Origin: Bdellovibrionota bacterium FG-1
GTDB taxonomy: Bacteria; Bdellovibrionota; UBA1018
DNA length: 64,000 nt
NCBI GenBank assembly: GCA_051382295.1
Contig: JBBCAW010000022.1
Location: forward strand, 1,074-65,073
Reading direction: 5' to 3'
The translations under genes were made by a program, and so were the position numbers. The stretch's first letter is position 1. Every line of letters begins with the position of its first letter. The notes under the pieces are model-generated. The model was not told the origin of the DNA. It did not search any database and saw nothing but the letters and a program-made list of their open reading frames with translations. This document shows positions 20,528 through 38,573 of the stretch, piece after piece.

Positions 20528-20567
20528 GCGCGGTGATGCGTTGGACGGAATAAAAAGGAGACTGACC

Positions 20568-21068
20568 ATGCGATTGCACCATGTATTTCTGTTCTCTTCT
20601 CTCCTGGTCTCATCCGTGGGCTGGTCGAATGATGTTCAGCCCGCTACGACGTACGCTCAACTCGCTCAGCTTTTTCAGCTAAGTGGGGCCCCCGTCACGG
20701 AAGAAATGAGGCCTTTGCTCTCCGGGCGCTGCTACTGGAGCAATGACCCGGCCCACGCAGTTGCTGGTCTGATCGCTTATCGCAGGTGGCCGGAGGGAGT
20801 GGGCGTCAAGATGATCCCACTCCTGAGCGACTTCGATGAACCCGGCTTTTTTGACCGACTGAACTCGGGCCAAAGGGAAGTTCTCGAAAAAATACTGAAA
20901 GACCACGAAGTAGACATGACTCCCGTCAGAAAATTGGAGACCTCGTGGAACTTCAAGAATGCAAAAAACCTCGTCTCGTACGAAATCAGACGCAGTCCAG
21001 AAGGGCTTTTGCTGATCAAGGCAAAAACACTCCTGTGTTACTACTTTCGGGAACCAGGCACGCACTGA
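20568..21068 (+). CDS. Secreted hypothetical protein
   Basis: ATG at 20568 is preceded by AAAAGGAG. Signal peptide MRLHHVFLFSSLLVSSVGWS. Confidence 0.5.
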   Translation: MRLHHVFLFSSLLVSSVGWSNDVQPATTYAQLAQLFQLSGAPVTEEMRPLLSGRCYWSNDPAHAVAGLIAYRRWPEGVGVKMIPLLSDFDEPGFFDRLNSGQREVLEKILKDHEVDMTPVRKLETSWNFKNAKNLVSYEIRRSPEGLLLIKAKTLLCYYFREPGTH

Positions 21069-21089
21069 GAGCATTGACCGGCAATTCGA

Positions 21090-21121
21090 GCCTCCGGCGT
21101 TCAAACGCTGGGGGCTTTTTG
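21090..21121 (+). terminator. Rho-independent terminator
   Basis: GCCTCCGGCG-ttcaaa-CGCTGGGGGC hairpin (8 of 10 pairs) followed by TTTTT. Confidence 0.6.
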
Positions 21122-21171
21122 CTGGTGCTTGCCAGACTGGGCCCTGTTTCGGAACCAAATACTGGAGAATT

Positions 21172-21513
21172 TCAAATAGCCTTTTTGAGTCTCGACTCGA
21201 TCAACTTATTCAGACTCACTCCCTCAATGTTCGCTCTTGATGCCAGATCCCGATGCAACGTGGGTTCGATTCGAAGAGGAATCTTGCCAGAGAACTTGCT
21301 TTCAGCAAGAGGCTTGGGGACTGGAAGGCCGCGGCGCTTCAGGCTTTCGATGAATCCCTCAATAATTTCGTGAGCCATTTGCAATGCGTGCTCAGGTGTT
21401 TCTCCATGCGTGACACAGCCAGGAAGCTCTGGCACACGAACAAGATAGGCTTCGTCCTCCGGACTCCAATTAATCTCTATCTTGTATTTAAAATTAATCC
21501 TCATTTTTTTCAT
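21172..21513 (-). CDS. hicB: HicB-family antitoxin with C-terminal ribbon-helix-helix
   Basis: WSPEDEAYLVRVPELPGCVTHGETPEHAL (HicB RNase-H-like fold motif) plus RHH-like IPLRIEPTLHRDLASRANIEGVSLNKLI. Confidence 0.9.
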   Translation of the reverse strand: MKKMRINFKYKIEINWSPEDEAYLVRVPELPGCVTHGETPEHALQMAHEIIEGFIESLKRRGLPVPKPLAESKFSGKIPLRIEPTLHRDLASRANIEGVSLNKLIESRLKKAI

Positions 21514-21742
21514 CTAATTCCTCTTTCAGTAAAAGTACCGAGCATGCTTGTTTCACCTGATAAGGTTTCAAATCTTTGGAATGAGTAGCAAAAACGAAGG
21601 TGAGCAGTCCTTTCTCCCAAAACTCGTGACTGCCTTTTACACGGTCTAGCACCCACCCCTCGTGTTTGAGCAAAGTGCGAAGCTCTCGCCCATCGATACT
21701 TCCTGCCTCTAGTTTAGCTTTGAGTTTGGTAGCTTTGGTCAC
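21494..21742 (-). CDS. hicA: HicA-family mRNA interferase toxin
   Basis: RELRTLLKHEGWVLDRVKGSHEFW is the HicA signature. The ORF opens at TTG 21790, but in-frame GTG at 21742 gives the typical ~80 aa. Overlaps hicB by 20 nt. Confidence 0.8.
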   Translation of the reverse strand: MTKATKLKAKLEAGSIDGRELRTLLKHEGWVLDRVKGSHEFWEKGLLTFVFATHSKDLKPYQVKQACSVLLLKEELDEKNED

Positions 21743-21761
21743 ATTTTTTAACCCAAGATAG

Positions 21762-21785
21762 ATGATATCAACTATGATATCAACT
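21762..21785. promoter_or_regulatory. Tandem 12-bp repeat (ATGATATCAACT x2), probable HicB/RHH operator
   Basis: Exact tandem copies at 21762-21773 and 21774-21785, each containing the palindrome GATATC, immediately upstream of hicA. Confidence 0.4.
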
Positions 21786-21860
21786 TGCAAGAACGTTTTT
21801 TTCGGCGCAACGACAAAGAGGTGAGGGTTTTATAACGCAAGAAAGTAAACGATGCGGAAC

Positions 21861-21878
21861 AACACCGACGTCGGTGTT
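21861..21878. repeat. 18-bp perfect palindrome AACACCGACGTCGGTGTT, copy a
   Basis: Read directly from the sequence. Intergenic between hicA and the 22028 operon. Confidence 0.9.
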
Positions 21879-22027
21879 CATTCCCTGAGCCGCAACGAGT
21901 ATGGCCCGTAATGGCATCAGCAACAGCGGTTTTACAGGGGCTCTCGGTAAAAGAGTCAACGCCTTGACACGTTCCTGTTGCAAACCCTCAAGTACGACAA
22001 CTCCATAGACGATAAGTCCAGAGGACC

Positions 22028-23392
22028 ATGAGGATCGCACACCCCGGGCTAGCCCTTCTGAGGATATTTGCCATCACCAGTCTTTTGACTGGGGCGTTTG
22101 GGGGGCTAAGCTTTGCCGATCCACCGCCGCTGACCTATATTCCGTATCGTGAAGCCGCCAACGGCCTCTCCCAGAAAGAAGCCGAAGGCCTCAAAAGCGT
22201 CTACGATTCCTATCGCGTGATCGACCTCGATCACAGCAACTTCACCCAGGTCGAATCGTGGTTTGACAAGCTCAACGAGCGCCTCACTGCGGCAGTAGAG
22301 AAGCAAGGCACCGCGTTTCCGCGTTACAAGATTTCACTCATGGCATCCGCTGAACCCACGGGCTTTATCTACAAAAGTCAGGTACCGGGACAGAAGGTTT
22401 TTCGGGGTCACGTATTTGTAAGTGTCGGACTGATCGGGCAGATGCTCGACACGATGGGCGCGGACCCAAAGCATTTGAAGCCGGAGGAAGTGGATCAACT
22501 CCTCAATGGTCTTGAAGGCGTCATCTCGCATGAGTTCAGCCATCCCAAGCAGGACGAGCTTGTCAAATGGAGCTGGCGCGCCGAGCAGGGAGGTTCGCGA
22601 CAAAACCATGGACAAGTCGACGAAATGTCGACCGATATCATGAGCCTTCGCGTAGCCAAAGATGCCAAGATTGATCCTAAAAACGTGCTCAACGGCCTCG
22701 AATTGGTGATGGGTCAGCGGCCCGACAACCGCACATTGGGACAAAAGGCCGCTTCGGCGGCGGTGTCAACCCACCCTCAAGCCAACCTTCGACTCAACCT
22801 GGTGCGGGCCGGTTTGACCAAGATGCGGATGGATGAGGGCAGGGCGACGGTTGAACCTATTCCGTATAATCCAAGCGCGATGACTCATGAGCTTGAACAG
22901 GTTCTGGTGCTGAAACAAACAGACGCACGTCTGGAAATGGAACCTCGGAGAAAACCGGGAAGTCTTTTTTCGAATACACTGCATGCGCTGCAGGAGGAGC
23001 TTGCAAAACCAAGGGGATATTCCGAATCGTTTGATCCTATCGCAACTCTTCGAGAATATTATCGAGTGTTACAAAAGGCCGAGCGGGAGGCCGGTCGACT
23101 TTCAGACTCCGAGATCCATGATTTTGTCCAACACATCGAATTCATGTTACGTCGGGGACGTTTCGGGCTTGTTTCTAATTACAATGCTTGGCAGACCTCA
23201 TCAGGAGGTCAAAGCGGAAACGGTATACGTCCCTCTTTAGCCAATATTCGCAGTGTCCTAAGAGAAACGGGGCGAATCGAGGCGTTTAAAGATCCTCGAT
23301 TTCAGGCCTGGTTTGAAAGCATAAGACGATCAGGAGAGCTGCAGAAGCTCATTCTTTTAAAAACGGATCATCAGGCCGATGAAAAGTTTTAA
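22028..23392 (+). CDS. Secreted putative zinc metalloprotease (HExxH)
   Basis: Signal peptide and a single HEFSH motif (GVISHEFSHPKQDE). No firm family assignment; M48-like at best. Confidence 0.5.
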   Translation: MRIAHPGLALLRIFAITSLLTGAFGGLSFADPPPLTYIPYREAANGLSQKEAEGLKSVYDSYRVIDLDHSNFTQVESWFDKLNERLTAAVEKQGTAFPRYKISLMASAEPTGFIYKSQVPGQKVFRGHVFVSVGLIGQMLDTMGADPKHLKPEEVDQLLNGLEGVISHEFSHPKQDELVKWSWRAEQGGSRQNHGQVDEMSTDIMSLRVAKDAKIDPKNVLNGLELVMGQRPDNRTLGQKAASAAVSTHPQANLRLNLVRAGLTKMRMDEGRATVEPIPYNPSAMTHELEQVLVLKQTDARLEMEPRRKPGSLFSNTLHALQEELAKPRGYSESFDPIATLREYYRVLQKAEREAGRLSDSEIHDFVQHIEFMLRRGRFGLVSNYNAWQTSSGGQSGNGIRPSLANIRSVLRETGRIEAFKDPRFQAWFESIRRSGELQKLILLKTDHQADEKF

Positions 23393-25106
23393 CTTCAAGG
23401 CAATCGATACTCATACCATCAATCTACTTTCAATGACGAGCGTGTTGGTTGAGCACCTTCCGAATCGGGACAAGTTGCGGCTCTTACAATACATCATGGA
23501 ACCTAAAGGTGAACTGACCCAAGAAATCCCCTCCTTATCCAAGGCGAAGGATGCCATTCAGAAGGCCTATAATGAGGCTACCGGACAAAGAATGCTTGAG
23601 TCCGACTACCGGGACATGCTGGAGAAACTTGAGGGCTTCATACGCGACTCCAGCGAAAGTGAGAGACTCATTTTGAACGAGATGATTGTCGGCACTCGAG
23701 GGCGGGGTCTTTGGTATCAGGGCGACGAAATGGTTAAGGCGTTATATGGACTGGCGGGGATTGATGCAAAAAAACTTCCGCTTTTTAAGGCCTATATCGC
23801 GGCGTTACCGGTTCACGAACGCACAATGGCCATGTCGTATCTGCTTTCGACCCAAACCGGCGAACAGGCTAATGAACCAGGTGCGCAGCTGCTGCGGATG
23901 ATGGAACTTCACAAAACCCCAGGGATCAAATTCGCGCAGATGGCGTCCATTCTCGGGATCTTCGGTCCTGAAGAATCTCACACGCTCGCAAAAGCAAAGG
24001 ACCGCTCCTCACCCATTTCATTGGCCGAGACCTACGAACAGCTCCGCGAAGTCTATACGCCCGAGCAATTCGCCAGGGTTAAAAGAGTCAAAAAGCTCGC
24101 AGGATCAGGGGGCATTAAGCACGTGGTTTTTGTCGAATTTAACGACGGCACCACCGAAGCGGTCTACCTCAAGCGCAAGTTCCTCGAAGAGACCATTGAC
24201 GACACGCTGGGGATCGTCACCGAGTTCACAAAGCAGCTCCAAGCTTATCCTGAATACGCCACGGCCTACGAATACGATTACTACCTCGAAACCCTTCGCA
24301 AACAACTCACTGAAGAAGTGAAATTCAAGCGCGAGCTAAACCTCTCTCAAGAAATGCAGGCGCTTTACAAAAAAGTGCCAGCGGTCAACGGTTGGAAGTT
24401 TGAACCGGTACCAGCTTCGACCCTTCGTCCGCAAACGGAACAGGTTCTGCACTTCAAAGCGATCGATGGCGTTGTGCCTTTTGAGCAGCTTTCCGCCGCA
24501 GATCAACGGGCAGTCTCGGAACTACTCGTTCAGACAGAACTTGACCTCTTACTCAAAGAGGGGCGGTTCGATGCGGATAGGCATCTGGGAAATTATCTTT
24601 TTGATCCAAAAACCAAGCGTGTTTACGCGATCGATTTTTCACAGGTCTATGGACTCAAGCGCGGAAATCTGCTGGAGCCCGGGGACCGGGTCTATCTGGC
24701 TAGGATTTTGCGTGCCCTGAGTTCCGAGAACAAAGAGGCTGCCGCCCGCGAACTCAGTGAGGTATTTATTGCGGTGGCTGAAAATCGAAAACAACTCCCT
24801 GCTGAGGCTCAAGCTCAGCTGCAAGCCAAGTTACTGAAGATCCTCCAGGGGCCGAGTGAAATCCGAGGAAAGATTCTTGCTCTTTTGGGCGAGCTCACCC
24901 AACAAAAGGTACACCTGCCGCTGCGCTATAGCCTCGGCATATTCAAGGGCGTTCTGATTGTGACCAACGAAGAATACGCCAAGCTTGTGCCGGCCGGCAT
25001 GATCGAAGACCGGCTCAAGGCCTTCGCCAAGAAAGCGCTCGTCCTCGATGCCCTGAGTAACCCCGGGCGTTGTTTGAGGAATGTTTTGGGGTGGCTGGAA
25101 AGATAG
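23379..25106 (+). CDS. ABC1/UbiB-family atypical protein kinase
   Basis: IKFAQMASILGIFGPEE (the KxGQxxS motif region), catalytic-loop-like DADRHLGNYLF and AIDFSQV. Overlaps the upstream gene by 14 nt. Confidence 0.7.
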   Translation: MKSFNFKAIDTHTINLLSMTSVLVEHLPNRDKLRLLQYIMEPKGELTQEIPSLSKAKDAIQKAYNEATGQRMLESDYRDMLEKLEGFIRDSSESERLILNEMIVGTRGRGLWYQGDEMVKALYGLAGIDAKKLPLFKAYIAALPVHERTMAMSYLLSTQTGEQANEPGAQLLRMMELHKTPGIKFAQMASILGIFGPEESHTLAKAKDRSSPISLAETYEQLREVYTPEQFARVKRVKKLAGSGGIKHVVFVEFNDGTTEAVYLKRKFLEETIDDTLGIVTEFTKQLQAYPEYATAYEYDYYLETLRKQLTEEVKFKRELNLSQEMQALYKKVPAVNGWKFEPVPASTLRPQTEQVLHFKAIDGVVPFEQLSAADQRAVSELLVQTELDLLLKEGRFDADRHLGNYLFDPKTKRVYAIDFSQVYGLKRGNLLEPGDRVYLARILRALSSENKEAAARELSEVFIAVAENRKQLPAEAQAQLQAKLLKILQGPSEIRGKILALLGELTQQKVHLPLRYSLGIFKGVLIVTNEEYAKLVPAGMIEDRLKAFAKKALVLDALSNPGRCLRNVLGWLER

Positions 25107-25126
25107 ACATCACGTGTTAGTTAAAG

Positions 25127-25381
25127 ATGAAAAAGGTCACCGCAATTGAGGTTGTTTCCGGCTTCTGTCTCAAACTAACTTACGCAGATGGAAGATCGAT
25201 CCAAGTAGACTTTACGAGCAAAATTCAAAAAGGCACTGTCACGGCACCTCTTGCAGAGCCAGGGGTTTTCAAGCGGGTGAAAATCGCCTGCGAAGGCAGA
25301 GCACTTGAGTGGCCGGGTGAGGTAGATTTTTGTGCAGATGCCCTGTGGTTCGAGGGATCTGGGGAAGTGAATACAAAATGA
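25127..25381 (+). CDS. DUF2442-domain protein
   Basis: 84 aa. VTAIEVVSGFCLKLTYADGRSIQVDF...LEWPGEVDFCADALW matches the DUF2442 pattern. Lies 20 nt after the kinase stop. Confidence 0.8.
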   Translation: MKKVTAIEVVSGFCLKLTYADGRSIQVDFTSKIQKGTVTAPLAEPGVFKRVKIACEGRALEWPGEVDFCADALWFEGSGEVNTK

Positions 25382-25421
25382 CCGTGAATGTGCTTCGTGT
25401 CGCAACCTGCTCGCGCACCGC

Positions 25422-25439
25422 AACACCGACGTCGGCGCT
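25422..25439. repeat. 18-bp palindrome family, copy b (AACACCGACGTCGGCGCT, 2 mismatches)
   Basis: Read directly from the sequence, 41 nt after the DUF2442 stop. Shares the right flank CATTCnnnGAGCC with copy a. Confidence 0.85.
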
Positions 25440-25458
25440 CATTCTTCGAGCCAGCGGG

Positions 25459-25634
25459 ATTTACTGCCGCGAAACGGCAGCTCAGGCCTTTAGCCTCCTA
25501 CCCAACTCCGTTTACTGCCTCAGGTCGGCAGTAGAAGTCTTTGTCCCCCCACTGAAACCAATCTACTGCCGCTAGACGGCAGAAAATCCTGTTCACTACC
25601 CCCTCAAACCGATTTACTGCCTCGCTCCGGCAGT
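25459..25634. repeat. Phased tandem array: four ACTGCC-N7-GGCAG dyads with an exact 51-bp period
   Basis: ACTGCC starts at 25463, 25514, 25565 and 25616. Spacers are always 7 nt and differ in sequence. The 51-bp units are about 60% identical overall (31 of 51 counted for units 2 vs 3). Confidence 0.9.
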
Positions 25635-25802
25635 TGAGGCAACTCATCGCCGGGAACCCCAGGAGTCTTCGCACCGGGAACCTTTTTTTCGTCTACCCTT
25701 TTGACACCCGCCCACTCTTCGATACAAATTCCAAACCCCCGCTACTCGGGCTCGATCAATTTACTTCATCCATTTCATACACTTAGTTTGGGTATGTCAC
25801 GC

Positions 25803-25818
25803 TGGCACCACCCCTGCA
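25803..25818 (+). promoter_or_regulatory. Sigma-54 (-24/-12) promoter candidate
   Basis: TGGCACcacccCTGCA with correct GG-N10-GC spacing, 45 nt upstream of the ATG at 25863. Confidence 0.6.
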
Positions 25819-25862
25819 ATGTTCGGCATTAAGAACAAGTTACTTTTAAGTGGAGTACCCTT

Positions 25863-26522
25863 ATGAGTCGTATTAGAAAAATGAACTTTGTCGGATTTAC
25901 CGCGACCGGCGTGGCGATTTTGGCCTCGACCCTTTTTCTGGTCGGATGCGGCCAACCTCCCCAGGCCTCCGTCACTGTCGCTGCTCCGGCGCCAAAAGCC
26001 GTGGTCAGTACCGATACCACCACCCCTGCTCCGGCACCGGCCCCCGTGGTACCCATTGCCCCCCCAAAAAATCCGGGCGACATCAACGACCTTTCGTTTT
26101 TTCCCCAGGAGGAGCTTGCCGCGATCATGGGAAATTACGGCGGCACCCTAAAATTTACCGATGCCAATGGGCAAGATTTCGAACAACCCTACACCGTTTC
26201 GATCTCCCAAGTGACCTTGGCCGATCAGCCTGGAAAGAAATTTGCCCAAATTTCATTTTCCTCCGGAAATTTACGCTTCCAATCCGTTTCAATGGTTCGA
26301 TACTTTCCGGGGTATTTTAATGGCATAGGGTCAACCTATAGCGTTGAGTCCTTTTCGCAAAAATCGCAAGGACTGGACTCCAACGGCGCCGTGAATCTCA
26401 TTTTCCAGGTCTCCTTAGGATATAATAAAGTGTTTGATCCGAATGGGTCCACGATAGACATTGTGGATGCATGGTCTCTCCAATCCGTCGTGGACTTCTA
26501 CGACGATTTGGAGAAACGCTAA
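25863..26522 (+). CDS. Lipoprotein, unknown function
   Basis: Lipobox LFLVGC, a Pro/Ala/Thr-rich linker and a ~140-aa C-terminal domain. Confidence 0.6.
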   Translation: MSRIRKMNFVGFTATGVAILASTLFLVGCGQPPQASVTVAAPAPKAVVSTDTTTPAPAPAPVVPIAPPKNPGDINDLSFFPQEELAAIMGNYGGTLKFTDANGQDFEQPYTVSISQVTLADQPGKKFAQISFSSGNLRFQSVSMVRYFPGYFNGIGSTYSVESFSQKSQGLDSNGAVNLIFQVSLGYNKVFDPNGSTIDIVDAWSLQSVVDFYDDLEKR

Positions 26523-26649
26523 ACCTCCCCCCCTCAAACTCCCTCCGGGGCCCGCCCAGCGCTCGAAAGGTGTTGGAACTCGGATCAGCGGGCCCCGCCC
26601 CCCCCTTTCACCCTTTCCAGACCCCCTCATTCCGGGGTAAACTGCTCCT

Positions 26650-27285
26650 ATGCGCGAGCACCCGTGGAATCAGCGTCGAGTCACCCACCGACATTTGCAC
26701 GATGAGCAAAATCTCCGCGATCTTCATGCCCTGACGGAGTCCTGGATCAATGCGATACCCCAGGGCGCTGCCTCGAACTCCCCTCACCCTTTCGATCAAA
26801 ATCCTTCTCTCGAAGATGATACCACGCCCGAGGATGTGCTCGTTCGGTTGGAATTAGCCGTTCACTCCGCCCAGGCGGAGATCCTTCGTGTCCGCCTACC
26901 GGACCGAGAACTTTTGAAAGACCTGTCCTGGAATGCCGGCAAATTTTGCGCCTCCCACCGCTGGGCGGATACCCTCACCCGACGAAATTCCTCATTAGCA
27001 CCGGCCGACAAACGAGCGCTTCTACTCGCATTATGCCATAGTCCGCTCAGCTATCGCCTCGGGGCCGATGCCTTTTTAGTTCGCCGCGCTTTAACTTCAG
27101 AAGTTTGCATCGAACTCCTTCAATGCCCCCATAGGTGGTCTGAAACAGTTCAAATGGATCAAGCTACCCGCGATGAACTTTGCCAACAACAATTTCATTG
27201 GCTGTGCGGTTACTTCACCCCTCTCGCTCCGTCGGTAACGCCCCAAATCTCTCGATCAGGGAGCAGGTGTATCCTCCAGTGGTAA
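26650..27285 (+). CDS. Hypothetical protein
   Basis: 211-aa ORF with no motif recognised. Its stop overlaps the proposed GTG start of the next gene (GTGGTAA). Confidence 0.45.
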   Translation: MREHPWNQRRVTHRHLHDEQNLRDLHALTESWINAIPQGAASNSPHPFDQNPSLEDDTTPEDVLVRLELAVHSAQAEILRVRLPDRELLKDLSWNAGKFCASHRWADTLTRRNSSLAPADKRALLLALCHSPLSYRLGADAFLVRRALTSEVCIELLQCPHRWSETVQMDQATRDELCQQQFHWLCGYFTPLAPSVTPQISRSGSRCILQW

Positions 27286-29027
27286 CCTCGGCCCATGCCC
27301 GGTTGGTTCAACTTCAACATCGCATTTATCGGGCACTTCAGCGCGAAGCGATGTTGGTTTTTGGACGAACCCCCTCGGCCATTCGCCGGTATGAGGTCGA
27401 ATGCCATCCCGATTTCAGCGGCCGATCCCCCCGCGTTTCAACCAAAGCCGAGCTCGTCTCCGTCATTCGAAATGCGGACGTCAGCTTTATCGCGGACTAC
27501 CATCCCTACGCCCAGGCTCAAAGAACCGCTCTGAGGCTTTTGCGGGAGGCGGTTTTACCCGGCGAAAAATGGCTCCTCGGTCTTGAACTGATCCCCAGTC
27601 AATATCAACCTATTTTGGATAACTATCAGGCCGGAAAAATCAGCGTCGAAAAATTTCACGCCTTGATCCGCTATCACGAAGACTGGGGGTTTCCATGGCA
27701 ACACTACGAACCCTTGTTCTCCTGGGCTCGAAAGAATGGCGTTCGCCTCATTGCGCTCAACCGCCCCAAAGAGCTGATTTATCGCAGCTACGGTCAACCC
27801 TCTGAGCGGAGCATCAAAGACTTGCACGCCCGTGATCAGTGGGCGGCCGGCATTATTGCGGATTGCTTTCATGAAAACCAGGAAAACCCTAAAAGTCATA
27901 CCCCCATGCGCATGCTAGTGCTTTATGGCGGTTATCATGTGGGCCGAGTCCATCTTCCTGAAAAATTAACCAAAATTTCTCGGGCTTTTCTCGGTAAAGC
28001 CCTTCGCTCGGTATCGGTTTACCAAAACGTCGATGCCATTTACTGGCGACTCGCCCTTCAAGAGCGTGAACTTCATGCCCAAGTCCTTAAATTCACCAAA
28101 GATGTTTTTTGCGTGTTTTCAGGTACCCCTTGGGCCCAGTTGCAATCCTTAATGGGCATGACCGAAGGCGAATCACTGACCACGCCCGATGAAGATGACG
28201 ATGATGACTCGGATCGTGAATGGGACAGTTCTAGCCGTCTCAAGGAAGAATACCTTTCGCTGATGAATCGATTTTCAAATGTGCTGGCCGAATTTTTTGG
28301 CCTCGAAAGCCCCTCTTTTGAGACTCTCTCCCTTCATACGATCGAGGAGGCCGATTTTGTGGATTCGCTTGCGGATGTCTTCATGCCAGGCGAACTTCGA
28401 CTCATTCGGGCGCTCGTCAGTGAAAATCATCGCCTCTATTTATCGCGTGCGCAAGTCGCTTACCTCGCCTCGCCCTCCCATAATGTCGCCGCTGAATACG
28501 CGGCCATTCATCTTTTGAGATCTTGTACCAGCTCCTCCGTGTTTTTTGAGGGAGGGACGGAGTGCTTTTTTAGATTGGCAATCGAGGCCACTTTTGGATT
28601 TTTGGGGAGCCTCATTCTCAACCCCAGGCGCAAATGCGACCTACCGCCAGATCATCGCCGAAGACTCAAAGCACTCAAGCAAGGTAAACGAGCGGCGTTC
28701 GCCAATGAACGAAAAGCTCGCACCCTCGCGCTCGCCGCACTCACTCCCGGACGAGGTCGGAAGTTAGAACTCGCCAAGGTCCCGGCGCACGCTTCCTCGG
28801 CCGCCCTGTATGTCGTCATTGCGGCCAGATATGCAGGGCAAATGCTCGCCAAAGCGATTTATCCGGTCATTCTGGATGCCGAACACGGCAGCGCGCAATT
28901 TACCCAAGTGGTTCAGCTCTTCACACGACGAAGAGGCTTCAAAGTTTTTGAAGAAACCTTCGTGGAACTCTACGCCCTTGCGCTTCGTTCGGAGCGAGTG
29001 CTCGCGAGCAAGACCGAAGAGATTTAA
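27279..29027 (+). CDS. ChaN/Tiki-superfamily-like protein (tentative)
   Basis: ADVSFIADYHPYAQAQRTALRLL...LGLELIP...GVRLIALN resembles the ChaN (PF04187-like) N-terminal pattern. The ORF opens at 27180; I prefer GTG at 27279. Confidence 0.45.
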   Translation: MVTSAHARLVQLQHRIYRALQREAMLVFGRTPSAIRRYEVECHPDFSGRSPRVSTKAELVSVIRNADVSFIADYHPYAQAQRTALRLLREAVLPGEKWLLGLELIPSQYQPILDNYQAGKISVEKFHALIRYHEDWGFPWQHYEPLFSWARKNGVRLIALNRPKELIYRSYGQPSERSIKDLHARDQWAAGIIADCFHENQENPKSHTPMRMLVLYGGYHVGRVHLPEKLTKISRAFLGKALRSVSVYQNVDAIYWRLALQERELHAQVLKFTKDVFCVFSGTPWAQLQSLMGMTEGESLTTPDEDDDDDSDREWDSSSRLKEEYLSLMNRFSNVLAEFFGLESPSFETLSLHTIEEADFVDSLADVFMPGELRLIRALVSENHRLYLSRAQVAYLASPSHNVAAEYAAIHLLRSCTSSSVFFEGGTECFFRLAIEATFGFLGSLILNPRRKCDLPPDHRRRLKALKQGKRAAFANERKARTLALAALTPGRGRKLELAKVPAHASSAALYVVIAARYAGQMLAKAIYPVILDAEHGSAQFTQVVQLFTRRRGFKVFEETFVELYALALRSERVLASKTEEI

Positions 29028-30445
29028 TCGGTAGTTTCTTCTTCTCGCATATCGATCAATTTTCGATAAATCGTACGCGAATTAATGCCAAGAAGCTTGG
29101 CGGTCATGTTTTTGTCGCCCTCCGTGGCTTCGAGAGTCTTGCGAATCAAGAGCTCTTCGACGTCTTTGAGCGAAGTCCCGAGAGGCACCGAAATGGAGAC
29201 GGCGGAGGTGGCCGCATGAACTTTGGTCATTTTGCTCGGGTCAAGACTGGAAATATGAGGGGGAAGATCCTCGGGGAGCACCTCCGGTCCTCGTACAAAA
29301 ACCACGGCCCGTTCGATCACATTGGAGAGTTCACGCACATTTCCCGGCCACGGATGGGCCAAAAGTCGCTCCATCGCCGCACTCGAAATCACCGCTAACG
29401 ACTTATCATGCCGCGCAGAGGCGCTCTTCAAAAAGAACCGAGCCAAATCCGGAATATCCTCGATGCGTTGCCGGAGCGGAGGAACCTCCACACCGATCAC
29501 CTCTAAACGATAAAGTAAATCCTGTCGGAACGTCCCAATCCTCACTGATTCTTTGAGGTCCCGATGGGTCGCGGCGATGACCCGGACGTCAATCTTACGC
29601 GACTGGGTCGCCCCCAGGCGTCTCACTTCGCTTTCTTGAAGCGTCCGCAACAGTTTAGCCTGCAGGGAAAAAGGCATGTCGCCAATTTCATCCAGCAAAA
29701 GAGTGCCCCCGTTTGCGGCCTCAAACAAGCCTTCTTTGATACCCGTCGCACCCGTAAAAGCGCCCTTTTCGAAGCCAAAAAGCTCGCTCTCAATCAACTG
29801 TTCCGGTACGGCAGCACAGTTCAAGGCCACAAAGCGTCCACCGGCCCGCGCACTCGTTTCATGAATCGCGCGTGCCACCATCTCCTTGCCAGTTCCACTT
29901 TCGCCGGTCAAAAGCACCGTCGCCGAAGTCGACGAAATTTGAAGAATGGTGGTCCTCAGATGCTCCATCACTTTCGAGCGACCCACCAAACGCGCAGTCC
30001 CGGTCGCTTCGGCGCCCGCAGGCCCAACGGAGGCACTGGAGTTTCGAGCTCGTGACCGTTTGAGCGCCACCTCAACCGACGAAAGCAACACCTGACGTTT
30101 GAAGGGCTTGGTCAAAAAATCCACCGCCCCGAGCTTCATCGCCCAAACCGCGTCTTCGACTCGGCCAAAAGCCGTCATCAAGATCACGGGCACATCTGCC
30201 CCACACAAAGAGAGCGCGCGCAAGAACTCAAGCCCGCCGAGCCTCGGCATGCGAACATCGGTCACAACCAGGTCAAAAGGCACGGTATTTTTGGCTGAAA
30301 CTTCGATCGGTGTGCGAATGTGATCTAAGGCCGCTTGGCCGTCCACCGCCGTCGCAACATCGTACCCCGCAAGTTCTAAAATTTTTCGGGTGGACTCGAG
30401 CGCCTGCGGATCATCGTCCACTAAAAGAACTCGATGATGGTTCAT
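29024..30445 (-). CDS. Sigma-54-dependent response regulator (NtrC family: REC + AAA+ + Fis HTH)
   Basis: Receiver LVVTDVRMP, Walker [15 protein letters not shown] loop and C-terminal [21 protein letters not shown]. Confidence 0.95.
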
Positions 30446-32487: not shown

Positions 32488-32531
32488 TCCCTATTCAGCA
32501 TAACTCAGTTCCTAAACCAACTCAATCACCG

Positions 32532-34124
32532 TCATGAAACCGGTAATTCCAAGCGTGGATAAAGCGGCTTAGGTTCGCCCGGACGATACTGCATTTGCCC
32601 CCACTTAAGCGAGGCAAGGGCGCCCTTTTCAGGGGGTTGGGGAATTTCTAGCTGCTCAAAAACCTTGGGCATCCCAAAGGGCAAAACTGGCATGAGACCC
32701 GTCGCAATCCAACGAATTCCCTCAAGTAAAGTGTAAAGCACCTCTTGAAGCTGCACCAGGGCTTCACGCGACGTCTCAGTAGGAGTCGCGCCCGCTTGCG
32801 TAATCACCTTCGCCAGGCCCCAAGGTTTCATTCGATCGATGTAAAGATTCAACACACGTGAGCGATCGGTACATGCTTTGGAGTAAGCCGAAGGATCGAC
32901 CGCTGCGATCGCCGCGTCCAGCTCAGCCGGGAGTTTCTCGAAGGATTCACGCACCTCTTTTGAACTCGTGAACGCGGCCGGAACCGAAAGCACTTCGTTC
33001 GGAAAATACTTACGAGTCATACTGATGGAACGATTGACAAGATTTCCCCAGTCATTGGAGAGATCGGCATTGTTTTTAAGAATCAGCAATTCGGGCGCAA
33101 AATTACCGTCTTGCGAAAACTGATTTTCCGCGAGCAAATAGTAACGGAAAGCATCGGGCCCGCTCCAAGCCATGACTTCGTCGGGTGTGACGACGTTCCC
33201 CGAGCTCTTGGACATCCGACTGCCGCGAATGGTAATATAGCCGTGCGCAAATACTTTTTTAGGAAGCGGCAAATCGAGCGCCATGAGCATCGCTGGCCAA
33301 TACACACAATGAAAACGTGAAATATCCTTGCCAATCACGTGCAGCATGGCTGGCCAGCGTGCATCAAATTCCCGAGCTTTTTCTGAGGTCGGCTCTTTGA
33401 GTTTGAACTCCATGCCCGCTGCGGTGAGATAATTAATCAAGGCGTCAAACCACACATACACGACATGCTGAGGATCCCAAGGGAGCGAAATCCCCCAAGT
33501 AAAAGTGGAGCGAGAAATCGAGAAATCCTTTAAGCCGGATTGAATAAAGTTAACGACTTCGGCGCGACGGTATTCAGGCTGCAAAAAATCCGGCCGCTCT
33601 TGGAAAAGCTTCAGCAGTGCGTCTTGATACTTGGAAAGTTTGAAAAAATAATTCTCTTCCGAGATCCATTTGGGCTTGGTTTTATGGGTCGGACAAAGGC
33701 CATCGACCAAATCTTTTTCAGTATAAAAAGCCTCGCACCCTTCGCAATAATGCCCTTCGTACTTAGCCTTATAAATATCGCCTTGATCAAAAGCCTTTTT
33801 GACGAGTTGTTGAACGACCCACTCATGATCGGGGTCAGAGGTCCGAATAAAGCGATCATAGCTCATGCCCATTTGACGCAAAACTTTTTCGATGTCGGCG
33901 GCCATCTGATCGCAATACGCCTTGGGCGAAAGCTCTTTGCTCTCGGCCGCGCGCTGCACATTGATGGAGTGCTCATCCATACCGGTGGCAAAAAAGGTTT
34001 CTTTGCCTTGCAGTCTCATTGCGCGAACCAACCAGTCCGCACCGAGGCACTCCCAGGCCCAGCCGACATGAATGCGCGAATTGGGATATACGATAGCCGT
34101 AGTGACGTATTGGACTTGTGACAT
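32532..34124 (-). CDS. metG: Methionine--tRNA ligase
   Basis: 530 aa with N-terminal class I signature region, Cys knuckle CEGCEAFY...CPTHK and KMSKS variant RMSKSSGN. Confidence 0.95.
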   Translation of the reverse strand: MSQVQYVTTAIVYPNSRIHVGWAWECLGADWLVRAMRLQGKETFFATGMDEHSINVQRAAESKELSPKAYCDQMAADIEKVLRQMGMSYDRFIRTSDPDHEWVVQQLVKKAFDQGDIYKAKYEGHYCEGCEAFYTEKDLVDGLCPTHKTKPKWISEENYFFKLSKYQDALLKLFQERPDFLQPEYRRAEVVNFIQSGLKDFSISRSTFTWGISLPWDPQHVVYVWFDALINYLTAAGMEFKLKEPTSEKAREFDARWPAMLHVIGKDISRFHCVYWPAMLMALDLPLPKKVFAHGYITIRGSRMSKSSGNVVTPDEVMAWSGPDAFRYYLLAENQFSQDGNFAPELLILKNNADLSNDWGNLVNRSISMTRKYFPNEVLSVPAAFTSSKEVRESFEKLPAELDAAIAAVDPSAYSKACTDRSRVLNLYIDRMKPWGLAKVITQAGATPTETSREALVQLQEVLYTLLEGIRWIATGLMPVLPFGMPKVFEQLEIPQPPEKGALASLKWGQMQYRPGEPKPLYPRLELPVS

Positions 34125-34129
34125 GTAAA

Positions 34130-34489
34130 TTACTCTGATTTTTGAGGAGAAGACCCGACTTCGGATCGTTCGGACTGAATTTCGGATCCTTCTTTCGGCT
34201 CGGGTTTATGCTTGCCGTTCTTGGATTTTCCGAAACGAAGCCGAACCCCCGCGCCCATAGAGGATTGACCGCCAGGCCCCATTTGGGCTGAAGAAGCTCC
34301 TGGCACCGCCTCTGGTGCGGCTTGTCCCACCGGTGCGGGTTCGACTTCGGGAGCCTCCGGCTCGATCTCAGTGGTCACGCTCTTGCCACCAGTCGGCTTG
34401 CCGCTGGGCTCGGCCCAACTCGACTGGGTCAGCGTCACGAGTGAAATCGATAATAAAATCGGCAATGAGATTCGAAATAGACTCAACAT
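34130..34489 (-). CDS. Secreted low-complexity protein
   Basis: Signal peptide followed by Pro/Glu/Ala/Gly-rich sequence, 119 aa. Confidence 0.45.
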   Translation of the reverse strand: MLSLFRISLPILLSISLVTLTQSSWAEPSGKPTGGKSVTTEIEPEAPEVEPAPVGQAAPEAVPGASSAQMGPGGQSSMGAGVRLRFGKSKNGKHKPEPKEGSEIQSERSEVGSSPQKSE

Positions 34490-34565
34490 GGCCGCATCTT
34501 AGCTTGAAAACGGGTTTTCTGCGATACTTGAATTGAGATTTAAATCTCGCCAAATAGCGCACAGC

Positions 34566-34583
34566 AACACCGACGTCGGTGTT
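34566..34583. repeat. 18-bp perfect palindrome AACACCGACGTCGGTGTT, copy c
   Basis: Read directly from the sequence, 20 nt beyond the stop of the DUF4143 ATPase gene. Left flank GCGCACaGC matches copy b (GCGCACcGC). Confidence 0.9.
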
Positions 34584-34603
34584 TCAGCGACGCATCGGTC
34601 CCC

Positions 34604-35785
34604 CTAACTCCACACCGTCCATGGAAGAATGGAGATGCCCGTTTCTTGAACGTGAGCCCGGTCCACTGGCGCGAGTAAGATGCCTCGTTTGGACTTCAAT
34701 TTCTTCATCGCGCCTAAAACCGATTTCTCGTGCCAACCCCAAGGACCACGGCCAACATCAGCAAGAGGAACCACCCGAATTGGGGTATTATCCAAAATCA
34801 TATCAACGGGAGTGCCCTTGGCACTTTTAAAGTACCGGACAAAAAACCGGGCTCCAGAATTTTCGTGATGTGAGAAAAGCTCATTCAACAGGGTCAGCCT
34901 TGAGAGTGAAAGCGTCGCCCCCTCGCTCTGAACCTCTTTCATTAAATAACTGGCCAGGCCAGAGTCTGTAGGCAGCCAAATTTCCTTTCCCGTCCCAAGT
35001 TCATGGCAGGAAATTCTTCGAATTATAAAAATACTCTCTAAACCCAGGAGATAGCGATTGAGTCTTCGTGATGATGAAGCCTGAAAGTGTGCCGTCGTCG
35101 GAAGCTCTCCTTCTCGCAAAGCCTTTCCCATTTGCTCCAAAAGGGAGAAGGCAAAATCGGCTTCAAAGCCTTTTCCCATCAGTCGGGCAAGGTCCCGTAA
35201 AATACTGGTATTCAACCAACCATTCCAAAAAAGCTCAATCTGAGAGGGATCTCGGAGAAACATCGGTATGGGCACCCCTCCTCGGACCATCGCCTTAGAG
35301 AAATCCTGCAACGAAATACGAGGAACCCATCCATCTTTGATTTTTAAGGTAGGCAATTCAGGAGGTTCCATTTCTAAGGCTTCGGAAATATTTAAAGGAA
35401 ATAGATGAAGAACGCCCATTCTTCCTGTGAGCGATTCTCTGATCCCACTTCCTTCTGAGAAAGAAGCTGACCCGGTTACAAAGAATTGCCCGGGCTTTCG
35501 GTTCTTGTGCACGAGAAGCTTCAAGGCATCAAAAAGTTTGGGCACCTTTTGAATTTCATCGACTAACGCCGGAGTCTCGAGCTTGGAAAGAAAAGATACC
35601 GCCGAGTTTTCGGCGTCACCTCGAGTGGAATCATGGTCCAAGGATGCGCTCGAATGAAAACGCACCTGCTTTTCCAAAAACGTCGTTTTTCCCACCTGTC
35701 GCAAGCCCACCACACCGATAGCAGGCCAAAAAGAGGCAAGTTTTTTGAGACGACTTGCGGCTTGTCTGGGTCTAAAATGGGGCAT
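34604..35785 (-). CDS. AAA+ ATPase with DUF4143-type C-terminal domain
   Basis: Walker A GLRQVGKTT, Walker B-like ALVDEIQKVP, and the 393-aa architecture typical of the ATPase/DUF4143 family. Confidence 0.8.
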   Translation of the reverse strand: MPHFRPRQAASRLKKLASFWPAIGVVGLRQVGKTTFLEKQVRFHSSASLDHDSTRGDAENSAVSFLSKLETPALVDEIQKVPKLFDALKLLVHKNRKPGQFFVTGSASFSEGSGIRESLTGRMGVLHLFPLNISEALEMEPPELPTLKIKDGWVPRISLQDFSKAMVRGGVPIPMFLRDPSQIELFWNGWLNTSILRDLARLMGKGFEADFAFSLLEQMGKALREGELPTTAHFQASSSRRLNRYLLGLESIFIIRRISCHELGTGKEIWLPTDSGLASYLMKEVQSEGATLSLSRLTLLNELFSHHENSGARFFVRYFKSAKGTPVDMILDNTPIRVVPLADVGRGPWGWHEKSVLGAMKKLKSKRGILLAPVDRAHVQETGISILPWTVWS

Positions 35786-36010
35786 TTTATAAAAATACTA
35801 CCAATAATATGCTATCACAAGTAGTAAAATGGTAGTATTTACATTTATTGAGAGCGCTTGCTCGTTTAGCTCTACCTGTGCCAGAAAAGGAAACCACCCA
35901 AAAGATACCCGTCACCCAGGAAACCGAGAGCTTCGTGCAACGCATCTGGCAGTAATAGAGTGAACCTTACCCAACTAAATCAGTTGCCTGCGGCGCAATA
36001 AGCGCAACAT

Positions 36011-36709
36011 TTAAGTCGGGTTTAGCCCAACCTCAAACGCATGTTGCAAGACTTTGGCGCCGGCAAGCGGCCCGGTAAACTCCGCCGAAACATCACAAGC
36101 CTCCAGATGCTTCACCTGAAAGGGAGCCCCATAAAGTCGAGCCACCTCTTCTGGAGTCACCGAAAACGGAGGCCCCGCAAAACGATCTTGAGGATATTCG
36201 AGCGTGCTCAGGAGCATTTTAAAATTCAAAAACACGGGCTTCGACTGACTCAAACTCGCCACCAACGCTTTCAAATGCGCGGCGTATTTCTGGCGAAGCT
36301 CCGGAGGAAGTGCAATCAGCGCTGCTCGATCGTAAATGCCTGTCACGTCCTCTAAATCGCTTGGGGTGAGGTTAAAAAAATCTCCCTCATCAAGAGTGAA
36401 AGGCCCACCCTGATAAATTCGAAAGGGACCGTGAGGGCGTTTTTGAATGATCTCGCTGGGAAAATTTTCCGCAAAAAAAGCCTCACAAGCGACGGGACTC
36501 AACTCAACGCCCAACACCGGGGTCGTTGAAGAACCCTCGACCGCATTTTGAGAAAGCCACAAAAGGTCTCGACTCTTCCCGGAAAACGGCACAAAAACCC
36601 GTCCTCCGCTCCGCTTCGGCCAATGCTTCAAAAGCATGGGCTCGAATTCATCCTGATGAAATCCAATTTTACCCACTGCCCATCTTTCCAACCAAAACTG
36701 AGGCTCCAT
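36011..36709 (-). CDS. Thiopurine S-methyltransferase (TPMT) family methyltransferase
   Basis: FWLERWAVGKIGFHQDE...RVFVPFSGKSRDLLWL pattern. ATG at 36709 is preceded by AGGAA. The longer ORF to 36853 overlaps the CYTH gene. Confidence 0.8.
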   Translation of the reverse strand: MEPQFWLERWAVGKIGFHQDEFEPMLLKHWPKRSGGRVFVPFSGKSRDLLWLSQNAVEGSSTTPVLGVELSPVACEAFFAENFPSEIIQKRPHGPFRIYQGGPFTLDEGDFFNLTPSDLEDVTGIYDRAALIALPPELRQKYAAHLKALVASLSQSKPVFLNFKMLLSTLEYPQDRFAGPPFSVTPEEVARLYGAPFQVKHLEACDVSAEFTGPLAGAKVLQHAFEVGLNPT

Positions 36710-36739
36710 AAGGAAATTCCTAGCAGAATTAGGTGAGGG

Positions 36740-36770
36740 AGTCCGTACCTTTTGGTAGAGAGCTGCGTCA
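36740..36770. repeat. 31-bp repeat, copy Y (AGTCCGTACCTTTTGGTAGAGAGCTGCGTCA)
   Basis: 28 of 31 identical, including a 17-nt exact run, to 53327-53357. Lies between the CYTH stop and the TPMT start. Confidence 0.85.
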
Positions 36771-36776
36771 AGTGGG

Positions 36777-37307
36777 CTAATTGGACCGCCGAGATTCAGG
36801 GGCGAGATAATCGACGTAAGAAAGATCCAGGAGGTCGTCACCCCGAATCCCAAAAGCTTGCATCAATTCATTAACCTTCGCGGTTTGGATTGAGTGCTCC
36901 TCGACTGAGTCATTCTTGCAAACAGCTTCAAATTCAACAAAAGTTCCTAGCCCCTTCACCTCATCCAGGTGAACGCGCACGTTCTCAATCAAAAAGACCT
37001 CTCTTCGTTTATCGACGACAAACTCGATACCTAAGAGATGCCCTAGAAGAGCCTTCAAATGATTCGGATCCTCAACCGGGAGAAGTGCGTAATCGCTTCG
37101 CATTGGACCGGTTTGATAGTCCTTTAAATACGGAATCAACTGCGCGGTCGTGCCATTTATTTCCCGTAATTTGAGTCGACCCGCTTGAGTGATAAAATAC
37201 GTATCTACCTGGTGCAATACGCCCAGATTGTCCGTTTTGAATTTGAGAGCCACGCTTCGCGCTTTTTTTAGATCAGAACACCGGGCCTTGATTTCGATGT
37301 TGGGCAT
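36777..37307 (-). CDS. CYTH-domain protein / class IV adenylate cyclase (CyaB)-like
   Basis: N-terminal NIEIKAR and C-terminal VHLDEVKGLGTFVEFEAV pattern of CYTH triphosphate-tunnel enzymes. Confidence 0.8.
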   Translation of the reverse strand: MPNIEIKARCSDLKKARSVALKFKTDNLGVLHQVDTYFITQAGRLKLREINGTTAQLIPYLKDYQTGPMRSDYALLPVEDPNHLKALLGHLLGIEFVVDKRREVFLIENVRVHLDEVKGLGTFVEFEAVCKNDSVEEHSIQTAKVNELMQAFGIRGDDLLDLSYVDYLAPESRRSN

Positions 37308-37347
37308 GAAGAATCGTTAACCCAAAAAGCAGACCTTTCCAAGAATT

Positions 37348-38337
37348 TTAGAGACCTTCGCCCCGGCCCGACTTTACGGCACTCCTTACTTTTTTCAGCT
37401 CTCCCTGGAGCAACTCCGCCTCACTCCCTCGTCCACTCTCGGTGAGAACCTCGATCAGTCTTTCCAAAAGACTGTCTCGATCCTCCACTTCTGGAATGAG
37501 CAGCGCCCGGCGCAAAATGGACTCAGACCGATCCAATTGAGGGGTGATGGAACGTCCGCCCTCCTGATAACAATCGGACCAGTGAATCCAACCCCATCCC
37601 CATTTTGGGTGAGTCGAAACGACCCGCTCGAAAAGTTCGTCGGCCTTCTCTTTTTTTCCTAATTTGAAATAGGATTCTGCCATGGCCGCAGTAAAGCGCT
37701 CACTAAAATAGGGGTCATTAAACTGTTTGAGAAAATTTTCAGTAAAATGAATTCGCTCCTCAAAAAACCGAGGGTCATCGATCGCCGCGTTCAATAGCTC
37801 AAGTTCAAAATCCTGTGACCAATTAAACAAACTTTGAGTTCCGCAAAACAAATCATCCCATTGAGAGACCGTGGAAATCATTTTCCCCCGTGCAATCTTT
37901 AAAACTTGATTCCAAGTTTTGAGCCAAGCTTCGCAGGCACGAACCGAATCATTCTGCTCGAGCAACTCATAGCCCTGTTGCATGTGGTCGTCGATGGATT
38001 CAAAACTCGGCTGTTCAGGAAGCCACCGCTCCCAAAGGATGGTCAGGGCAATCCAGACCCAATCGACCTCCCGGGCTTCGGATTCGATTGAATATTGTTC
38101 CCAAAGCGATTCGGCCCAATCTTGGGCCGAAATAAACTCAGATGCCGCTTGAATGAAGGTTTCGCGGTTAAAGGAAATGCCCCAGTCTTTCAATTTTTCA
38201 AGAAGCTGCTCATCACTCAGTGCCCTTCCTTTCGAACGGGTCGGGCGGGTGCCTTGCCCAAGCTTCCCTTTTGGGTGTTTCTTGGATTCCTCTTCTATCA
38301 TCCGATCTATGGCCACAAATGAGAGATTCATCTTCAT
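37348..38337 (-). CDS. Hypothetical helical protein
   Basis: 329-aa ORF, Trp/Glu-rich helical repeats with a TPR-like tail. No motif recognised. Confidence 0.5.
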   Translation of the reverse strand: MKMNLSFVAIDRMIEEESKKHPKGKLGQGTRPTRSKGRALSDEQLLEKLKDWGISFNRETFIQAASEFISAQDWAESLWEQYSIESEAREVDWVWIALTILWERWLPEQPSFESIDDHMQQGYELLEQNDSVRACEAWLKTWNQVLKIARGKMISTVSQWDDLFCGTQSLFNWSQDFELELLNAAIDDPRFFEERIHFTENFLKQFNDPYFSERFTAAMAESYFKLGKKEKADELFERVVSTHPKWGWGWIHWSDCYQEGGRSITPQLDRSESILRRALLIPEVEDRDSLLERLIEVLTESGRGSEAELLQGELKKVRSAVKSGRGEGL

Positions 38338-38445
38338 CTCCTAGAAAAAGCAAGGTTACCATCTGGATCTCACTCCTTCAACAAGCGCATGGACTGAATC
38401 CGACGAACGGCACTCAGAGTAACCCAGGCCCTTCACCGCAAATTC

Positions 38446-38463
38446 AACACCGACGTCGGTGTC
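38446..38463. repeat. 18-bp palindrome family, copy d (AACACCGACGTCGGTGTC, 1 mismatch)
   Basis: Read directly from the sequence, 109 nt upstream of the start at 38337. Confidence 0.9.
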
Positions 38464-38573
38464 CTCAAGCGCCGCTCTGGGGCCCCAATTCATTGTCAAA
38501 AACATGACACCCCAACACCCCCTCAAATCCTCACGCCACCTACCGATAAGGTACTGGAAGGAGTTTATTCGTT

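Follow-up and report, generated by a model that had tools for sequence, protein, structure and literature searches.

Integrons and the dif modules of Acinetobacter both move adaptive genes by way of short palindromic sites that frame them, and both were first recognised from such patterns in sequence. In the dif consensus the inner arms read ...CATAA and TTATG.... Other dispersed palindromes serve other ends: repetitive extragenic palindromic (REP) elements of the kind associated with RAYT proteins carry a conserved GTAG-like tetranucleotide at the foot of the hairpin, REPs are rare between divergent promoters, and the operators of the ParB-family protein KorB of RK2 are 13-bp palindromes dispersed at promoter-proximal and promoter-distal positions. 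In layout, dif and pdif sites are 28 bp long: conserved inner arms, inverted with respect to each other, flank a 6-bp centre, and the outer arms vary; in Acinetobacter these sites frame gene modules that contain no recombinase (PMC6449649). Here we describe an 18-bp perfect palindrome, AACACCGACGTCGGTGTT, which occurs four times in a 64-kb stretch (hereafter the window) of the genome of Bdellovibrionota bacterium FG-1. A short, directional repeat that is specific to this lineage has the palindrome as its conserved core and frames two horizontally acquired modules; its layout is like that of module-framing sites, yet it falls in none of the families that we tested. The pattern stands on the chromosome of an uncultured Bdellovibrionota class, its site sequence fits no known family, and its cargo is defence-like and toxin-antitoxin-like. 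We tentatively read the copies as the joints of modules that a recombinase encoded elsewhere may have integrated at the core, and we give this a little less than an even chance. If the core is recombinogenic, the exchange of modules in FG-1 would be a new system, and its 18-bp recombination target a compact and symmetric one; if the core is instead a genome-wide REP-like element, it would be an ordinary lineage-specific repeat, of use mainly as a marker of recent insertions.

Four copies of a directional repeat

The copies start at 21861 (a), 25422 (b), 34566 (c) and 38446 (d), with 0, 2, 0 and 1 mismatches, and they are all that the window holds at three mismatches or fewer, in full agreement with the positions and mismatch counts of a preliminary description of this DNA. 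Its authors had judged that such a recurrence could not be chance, and rightly so: the mean expectation is 0.01 matches, and none of 100 dinucleotide-preserving shuffles reached four. The four copies are restricted to 17 kb within the window, a half-site count found no 9-bp half-site elsewhere in it, and a profile search with all four copies and their flanking bases turned up no degenerate one, either in the window or across 286 kb of further loci that we fetched. A C stands directly before each copy. The three substitutions among the copies are all T>C on the plus strand and all in the distal right arm, a pattern that would preserve G-U pairs on the minus strand only, as a transcript or as a single strand, and that is weakly, with three events, consistent with directional flanks.

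The flanks tell more about how the copies are related. Compared over 15 positions in the +/+ orientation, the right flanks of a and b are alike at 10/15, as are the left flanks of b and c, just as had been described; the remaining 22 flank comparisons, all reverse-orientation ones included, reach at most 7/15. A further proposed likeness, that of the left flank of a to the right flank of c in reverse complement, did not hold, being 3 nt out of register and not above background. The right flank common to a and b is CATTCnnnGAGCC and the left flank common to b and c is GCGCACMGC, which gives a full form of about 40 nt, GCGCACMGC-AACACCGACGTCGGTGTT-CATTCnnnGAGCC. Only copy b is complete and has both extended flanks (GCGCACCGC-core-CATTCTTCGAGCC); the others have the core with one flank or none, and a MAFFT alignment places the same CACCG motif in copy d, 6 nt farther out. 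Since the flanks match in the +/+ orientation only, the element is directional despite its palindromic core, and since they are shared beyond that core, the copies are related by descent, as relics of a directional repeat of about 40 nt, and are not independent sites. This flank mosaic is in keeping with a repeat family in decay or with recurrent exchange at one shared core. Outer stems, which would enlarge the palindrome to an imperfect one, were tried and rejected: the flank duplex energies fall at the 4th to 56th percentile of background, and the combined Fisher value of about 0.05 is marginal.

Beyond the window, exact scans for the 18-mer in a genome and a metagenome contig collection that do not include the FG-1 assembly gave 8 and 9 matches, which is chance level. 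These 17 are single occurrences in unrelated, mostly high-GC genomes, and the core lies in them mostly in frame as NTDVGV, with the look of coding sequence (by eye, with no check of open reading frames, ORFs). Viral contigs held no exact match, BLAST of the 40-nt consensus against plasmids and phages returned nothing better than E = 2, the 16-mer of the palindrome was not found as a text string in the literature, and a literature search for REP elements in Bdellovibrio found none. Within the window, GACGTC showed no sign of restriction-site avoidance (16 sites against about 16 expected). Scans for Rfam families and tRNA genes found nothing, so that no tRNA-type integration site is present.

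A perfect palindrome calls for some care about its source. FG-1 is a metagenome-assembled genome (MAG) of an uncultured magnetotactic member of the class UBA1018, with the proposed name "Bdellonasus magneticus" (PMC13200544), obtained by multiple displacement amplification (MDA) of about 100 sorted cells, Nextera XT libraries and assembly by SPAdes --sc (PMC13200544). With such an origin the copies might be artefacts, for example chimeric joints or adapter dimers, that arose when the DNA was amplified, made into libraries or assembled as single-cell data; a perfect palindrome without a spacer is what head-to-head ligation would be expected to give, and one independent contig ends exactly at copy c. 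However, two of the copies carry substitutions, their flanks are partly shared, and every copy sits in a sensible spacer beside complete genes or operons. The Logan contigs of the FG-1 run SRR34512804, an independent k=31 assembly, stop inside the window or 400 nt past it; they reproduce all four copies and pass straight through a, b and d. We take it, moreover, that AACACCGACGTCGGTGTT matches no Nextera or MDA oligonucleotide. As the independent assembly reproduces the copies and the library chemistries lack the sequence, an artefact is very unlikely indeed.

The contig that ends at copy c is a small observation of its own. SRR34512804_1005, which comes from the direction of MetRS, stops at 34595, and its last 31-mer (34565-34595) takes in a single left-flank base, then the whole 18-bp core and finally 12 nt of the second gene block described below. 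Such an end points to the graph branch that would be expected if the core and the flank of that block were joined to a second left context, and its cause would be either mundane, in fold-back chimeras formed by MDA at the palindrome, or structural heterogeneity. That contigs cross a, b and d unbroken argues against widespread inversion.

Two accessory modules and their absence from relatives

The four copies fall into two pairs, each enclosing one block of genes (Table 1). As the preliminary description had it, copies a and b bracket three co-oriented plus-strand genes (22028-25381, block 1) and copies c and d four co-oriented minus-strand genes (34604-38337, block 2), and the spacing that it gave is also sound: for blocks 1 and 2, one copy lies 40 and 20 nt past the last stop codon (b behind the DUF2442 gene, c behind the minus-strand AAA_14 gene) and the other 149 and 108 nt ahead of the first start (d before the minus-strand TPR gene). 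Copy a occupies a 285-nt divergent spacer between hicA (start 21742, minus strand) and the M48-like gene (start 22028, plus strand); copy c is 76 nt upstream of a small 119-aa gene, and copy d about 80 nt upstream of the CCGATAAG box of a 472-aa backbone gene. The description of all four as intergenic stands in that each lies between genes, and is qualified only by a dubious 59-aa ORF (25378-25554), called by one gene caller, that spans copy b.

Table 1. Coordinates of the repeat copies, the accessory regions and the bracketed genes in the window
Feature	Positions	Strand	Remarks
Accessory Region I	16994-25862		between conserved 937-aa and 219-aa genes
Copy a	21861-21878	+	perfect; extended repeat ~21851-21892, including right flank CATTCCCTGAGCC
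M48-like peptidase	22028-23392	+	block 1
ABC1/UbiB-like kinase	23379-25106	+	block 1; weak Pfam ABC1 match, E = 3e-10
DUF2442 protein	25127-25381	+	block 1; resembles N-terminus of DhiA antitoxin
Copy b	25422-25439	+	2 mismatches, both T>C in right arm; extended repeat ~25412-25453
Accessory Region II	34490-38573		between MetRS-adjacent 119-aa gene and conserved 472-aa gene; copy c, block 2 and copy d
Copy c	34566-34583	+	perfect; left flank GCGCACAGC
AAA_14 ATPase	34604-35785	-	block 2; PADLOC single-gene defence candidate PDC-S01 match, E = 1e-46
Thiopurine S-methyltransferase (TPMT)	36011-36709	-	block 2
CYTH/CyaB-like protein	36777-37307	-	block 2
TPR protein	37348-38337	-	block 2
Copy d	38446-38463	+	1 mismatch, T>C at last base

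The relatives' loci show what the backbone looks like without these blocks. We compared L019-L021, L023, L025, L026 and L031 (about 122 kb in all, L023 and L019 coming from one 440-kb ENA contig); in the nearest relatives the backbone proteins are 47-86% identical to those of FG-1, with the exception of the weakly conserved 219-aa gene at 24-35%. In L023/L019 and in L026 the gene order begins on the minus strand with an aminotransferase, coaD, rsmD and a 2xx-aa gene, continues on the plus strand with genes of 914-941, 220 and 187-211 aa and ChaN, returns to the minus strand for a sigma-54 response regulator, a histidine kinase and MetRS, and ends with a divergent 453-528-aa gene accompanied by an HD-GYP gene. 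L031 keeps the same order from the homologue of the 219-aa gene on, and L020, L021 and L025 keep parts of it. The backbone of the window is this same order with two extra stretches, Regions I and II. Region I holds a 229-aa ORF, a FeeM-like gene, a TetR gene, two small ORFs, hicBA, copy a, block 1, copy b and a hairpin array; its counterpart is 250 nt in L023, about 185 nt in L031 and, in L026, about 880 nt with one unrelated 157-aa ORF. The counterpart of Region II is an empty spacer of 190 nt in L019/L023 and of 253 nt in L031, and removing block 2 from FG-1 with one core kept would leave 76 + 18 + 110 = 204 nt, near both of these lengths.

The preliminary description had suggested checking whether the blocks come and go as units in relatives, and both are indeed absent from the syntenic loci of every relative examined; tblastn of the 14 accessory proteins of Regions I and II gave no match in those loci. 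Judged by this comparison, both bracketed blocks are accessory. The palindrome is missing along with them, as the relatives' syntenic spacers contain no good copy and no 9-bp half-site. The sole match in a syntenic spacer at five mismatches or fewer is at chance level, in L021, and a match with four mismatches at 874 in L031 lies inside a gene. What the relatives lack, though, is the whole of 16994-25862 and not block 1 alone, which makes copy a an internal boundary of a larger accessory region. Just beyond copy d stands the conserved, promoter-proximal CCGATAAG box that belongs to the 472-aa gene, and the backbone therefore resumes there.

Copies b, c and d thus fill all three of the spacers at which backbone meets accessory DNA: b is the right edge of Region I, c and d are the left and right edges of Region II, and at the fourth such junction (16993) the genes overlap and leave no spacer. 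Copy a stands at a junction between modules, with the hicBA toxin-antitoxin pair on one side and block 1 on the other. Counting spacers of 50 nt and more, there are 11 in the syntenic stretch; by simple combinatorics, four elements placed at random would occupy all three junctions with a chance of 8/330 = 0.024. The earlier suggestion that the palindromes are termini or insertion scars of mobile cassettes accordingly holds in part: the blocks are missing from relatives, three of the four copies mark backbone/accessory junctions and flanks are shared, but copy a lies inside a larger region.

The main rival explanation bears on these same spacers. A genome-wide, REP-like extragenic palindrome, selfish or structural and dispersed through gene conversion or a trans-acting transposase, might simply have come to occupy the long, weakly constrained spacers near acquired DNA, so that the bracketing would be a by-product of operon structure; we regard this as possible, though we doubt it. 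Four of the five longest spacers between 16.9 and 38.6 kb are occupied, and a preference for long spacers would by itself bracket operons. The copies are short extragenic palindromes, directional, lineage-specific and degenerate in their flanks, as REPs are, and no local enzyme is required, since in REPs and in bacterial interspersed mosaic elements (BIMEs) the enzyme need not adjoin most copies. However, the other 47 kb hold no copy despite at least six spacers longer than 140 nt, nor is there one at the three other junctions within Region I, with spacers of 100-150 nt (17660-17806, 20048-20201 and 21068-21172), or in the 225-nt spacer inside block 2 (35786-36010). The absence of copies from the other module boundaries, the block 2 spacer and the rest of the window ties the repeat to the two modules and not to spacers generally. 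Unlike typical REP stem-loops, moreover, the FG-1 palindrome is perfect and loopless, forms no tandem clusters of the BIME type, and in two of its four copies lies between divergent genes and their promoters. Membership in the REP/BIME family, which had been put forward earlier, fails in the strict RAYT sense on the flanking tetranucleotide: the bases that adjoin the core (GAAC, CCGC, CAGC and ATTC on the left; CATT, CATT, TCAG and CTCA on the right) include no GTAG-like one. The window has no Y1 transposase gene.

The comparison with relatives also bears on the proposal that the copies are paired operator sites. Here an FG-1-specific protein would bind the palindrome as a dimer on two 9-bp half-sites, be it one that regulates or silences acquired genes or one with dispersed sites like KorB or ParB. 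The dyad is a perfect 18 bp, copies a and d stand between divergent promoters, 108-149 nt ahead of starts, the sites are clustered in 17 kb, and a TetR gene, hicB and the antitoxin-like DUF2442 gene are nearby; like KorB operators, the copies are near-identical palindromes at several spacers, some of them near promoters. Yet two copies follow directly behind stop codons (20-40 nt), none keeps a fixed distance to a sigma-54 or sigma-70 consensus, there is no sigma-54 promoter beside a, c or d, and the TetR gene has no copy in its own upstream spacer (20049-20200). In all relatives the palindrome is absent upstream of the orthologous 472-aa, MetRS-side and 219-aa genes. Two identical 19-mers with shared flanks are the mark of DNA copying and not of convergent operator evolution, and the copies differ from KorB sites in these copied flanks, in their tie to insertion junctions and in the lack of any ParB- or KorB-like gene in the window. 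With the palindrome not conserved upstream of orthologues and at no fixed promoter position, paired operators found no support, and we consider them unlikely. A role as a sigma-54 enhancer was likewise rejected: the sole good sigma-54 promoter (25803) has a separate inverted-repeat array of its own, and none lies near a, c or d.

Where the copies lie relative to stop codons raises one further alternative, in which a hairpin with a 7-bp stem and a 4-nt loop would act in RNA to terminate or stabilise the module transcripts. Copies b and c are indeed on the transcribed side, just past the last stops, and the three T>C changes keep G-U pairing in a minus-strand transcript. That wobble favours the minus strand, though, and block 1 is transcribed from the plus strand; sequence identity and not structure alone is conserved across the copies, and the fold energies of the 58-nt contexts are unexceptional (z -2.5 to +0.3). 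No T-tract follows any of the four copies, as had been noted, and classical terminators are rejected on that ground and because only two of the four copies stand at 3' ends, a and d lying between divergent genes where no transcript ends. We hold a function in RNA to be improbable.

The modules themselves are small, 3.6 kb for block 1 and 3.9 kb for block 2. Given its 225-nt internal spacer, block 2 may be two transcription units and not one operon. Its GC content is 0.486 against about 0.535 in the backbone, and its tetranucleotide correlation of 0.815 is below the 5th percentile of random 3.6-kb segments; block 1, at 0.838, deviates less. A word-index search of 5.8 billion proteins with the kinase of block 1 returned only the protein itself, which is thus an orphan. 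With the PDC-S01-like AAA_14 protein, hicBA and the DhiA-like DUF2442 protein, the accessory regions look like small defence or toxin-antitoxin islets.

As a side observation, the spacer upstream of the 472-aa gene family varies across the class. It is empty in L019/L023 and L031, and upstream of the 472-aa homologue it holds an M9 peptidase in L020, a run of genes from M23 to ParBc_2 in L025 and a 336-aa gene in L026; in L021 a 30-nt inverted repeat (90%; 4030-4059 and 4518-4547) encloses an HTH_31 gene there. This spacer is a recurrent insertion hot spot. No bracketing repeats were found around the relatives' variable genes besides the inverted repeat of L021. The CCGATAAG box (38543-38550) is conserved upstream of the 472-aa gene in the window, L021 and L023, with variants CCGATAGG and CCGATGAG in L020 and L026 and no clear match in L031. 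In block 1, CGATAAG (22010-22016) likewise stands ahead of the M48-like gene's start, and the box may be a promoter or leader motif.

Possible recombination at the core and known site families

Set in a 28-bp frame, the site has the layout of dif and pdif. The inner part reads AACACC - GACGTC - GGTGTT, with an invariant 6-bp centre and with GGCGCT and GGTGTC as variants of the right arm, and the outer 5 nt are variable and non-symmetrical (GGAAC, ACCGC, ACAGC and AATTC on the left; CATTC, CATTC, TCAGC and CTCAA on the right), the best copies having ACMGC as their left and CATTC as their right outer arm. The FG-1 modules are also like pdif modules in what they carry and lack, being small, with few genes, their own promoters and no recombinase inside, bracketed by short sites with palindromic inner arms, a 6-bp centre and variable outer arms; pdif modules often bear toxin-antitoxin or adaptive cargo, and their recombinase acts in trans, which we count as a further likeness. 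The sequence itself is unrelated to dif, as the inner arms AACACC and GGTGTT do not match its consensus and have no ATAA/TTAT. Unlike pdif sites, which are inversely oriented, the FG-1 sites are apparently direct, with flank matches and the preceding C in the same orientation only; their conserved part is 18-19 bp with an invariant, palindromic centre, and they are on the chromosome of an uncultured bacterium of the Bdellovibrionota.

This layout is one ground for our tentative reading of the palindromes as module joints; the others are the junctions at which the copies stand, the cargo, which is accessory, and the mosaic of flanks. Site-specific recombination would take place at the 18-bp core; a recombinase encoded elsewhere in the genome and acting in trans would splice each module into the chromosome, leaving one copy of the palindrome at each joint, and the same enzyme might still excise or exchange modules. 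Three points of this reading are inferred: the function of the palindrome as a recombination site, the entry of the modules through it, and the existence of a cognate enzyme. The flank mosaic is what repeated exchange at a common core would give, and the cargo, with a defence candidate, antitoxin-like genes and hicBA adjacent, is typical of mobile islets. More speculatively, and with a low probability in our estimation, the copies could belong to an undescribed system of chromosomal gene-module capture, in which multi-gene modules with their own promoters would be inserted, excised or swapped at a symmetric 18-bp core by a recombinase dedicated to the task and encoded at another locus. By analogy, such a system would be the counterpart of integron cassettes and dif modules, with an unrelated site sequence and in a deep-branching predatory magnetotactic lineage.

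Several observations weigh against integration at the core. No gene in the 64-kb window encodes a recombinase, integrase or transposase domain (Y1_Tnp included). The cores are no more alike within pairs than between them (a and c are identical, b and d changed), and given these identities there is no sign of recent duplication at insertion. The flanks of block 2 misfit a simple attP x attB scheme starting from the full-length site of block 1, and inner arms of only 6 bp and a palindromic centre, which would give no direction, are both unusual for tyrosine-recombinase sites. Neither module was found in a second context in plasmids, phages or viral contigs, and the kinase has no homologue. As even the nearest relatives are distant, absence from them gives the direction of change by parsimony only and is silent on recent mobility. 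Lastly, the case is built on four copies in a single MDA-derived MAG.

Integron attC sites and insertion sequences were considered as well. Like integron cassettes and the clusters of attC sites lacking integron-integrases (CALINs), the FG-1 cargo is bounded by palindromic sites, with a putative recombinase elsewhere, and the core starts with AAC and ends with GTT. It has, however, no RYYYAAC or GTTRRRY boxes (CCGCAAC, GTTCATT and GTTTCAG, for example, do not fit), and whereas in attC such boxes form the foot of a bulged hairpin 57-141 nt long, the FG-1 site is 18-40 nt long, with its conserved 18-19 nt at the hairpin apex. An integron array is made up of co-oriented cassettes, mostly promoterless and of a single ORF, beside intI/attI. 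The blocks neither form such an array nor resemble its cassettes: they have three and four genes with their own promoter regions in 108-149 nt of upstream sequence, lie on opposite strands and 9 kb apart, and have no integrase in the window. A miniature inverted-repeat transposable element (MITE) or an insertion sequence was rejected because no direct repeat abuts the unit, which is only about 20-40 nt long.

Other repeats in the window

Three further repeat features of the window are worth recording beside the palindrome family. Only 19 nt from copy b, and separate from that family, four inverted repeats TACTGCC-N7-GGCAG follow one another with an exact 51-nt period (25458-25640; four repeats against 0.07 expected). 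A sigma-54-type promoter, TGGCACcacccCTGCA (25803-25818), follows 170-340 nt downstream of them; it precedes the 219-aa gene and is conserved in relatives as TGGCACcgagtCTGCA, upstream of which the relatives have a palindrome of their own, GTGTCYAA-N3-TTRGACAC, in L026 and L031, and only the half-site TTTAGACAC in L023. The TACTGCC array is probably an enhancer array for an NtrC-type activator, of which one gene lies at 29024-30445.

Just upstream of hicA, TGATATCAAC-TA-TGATATCAAC (21763-21784) overlaps sigma-70-like promoter matches and is a candidate HicB operator of the hicBA pair (21172-21742). Farther away, between the ArgRS gene and a gene for a MacB-like ABC transporter, a 33-nt inverted repeat has arms that are 85% complementary and 155 nt apart (61928-61960 and 62116-62148). 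A Logan contig ends just before it, at 61914, and the repeat may be a small MITE-like element.

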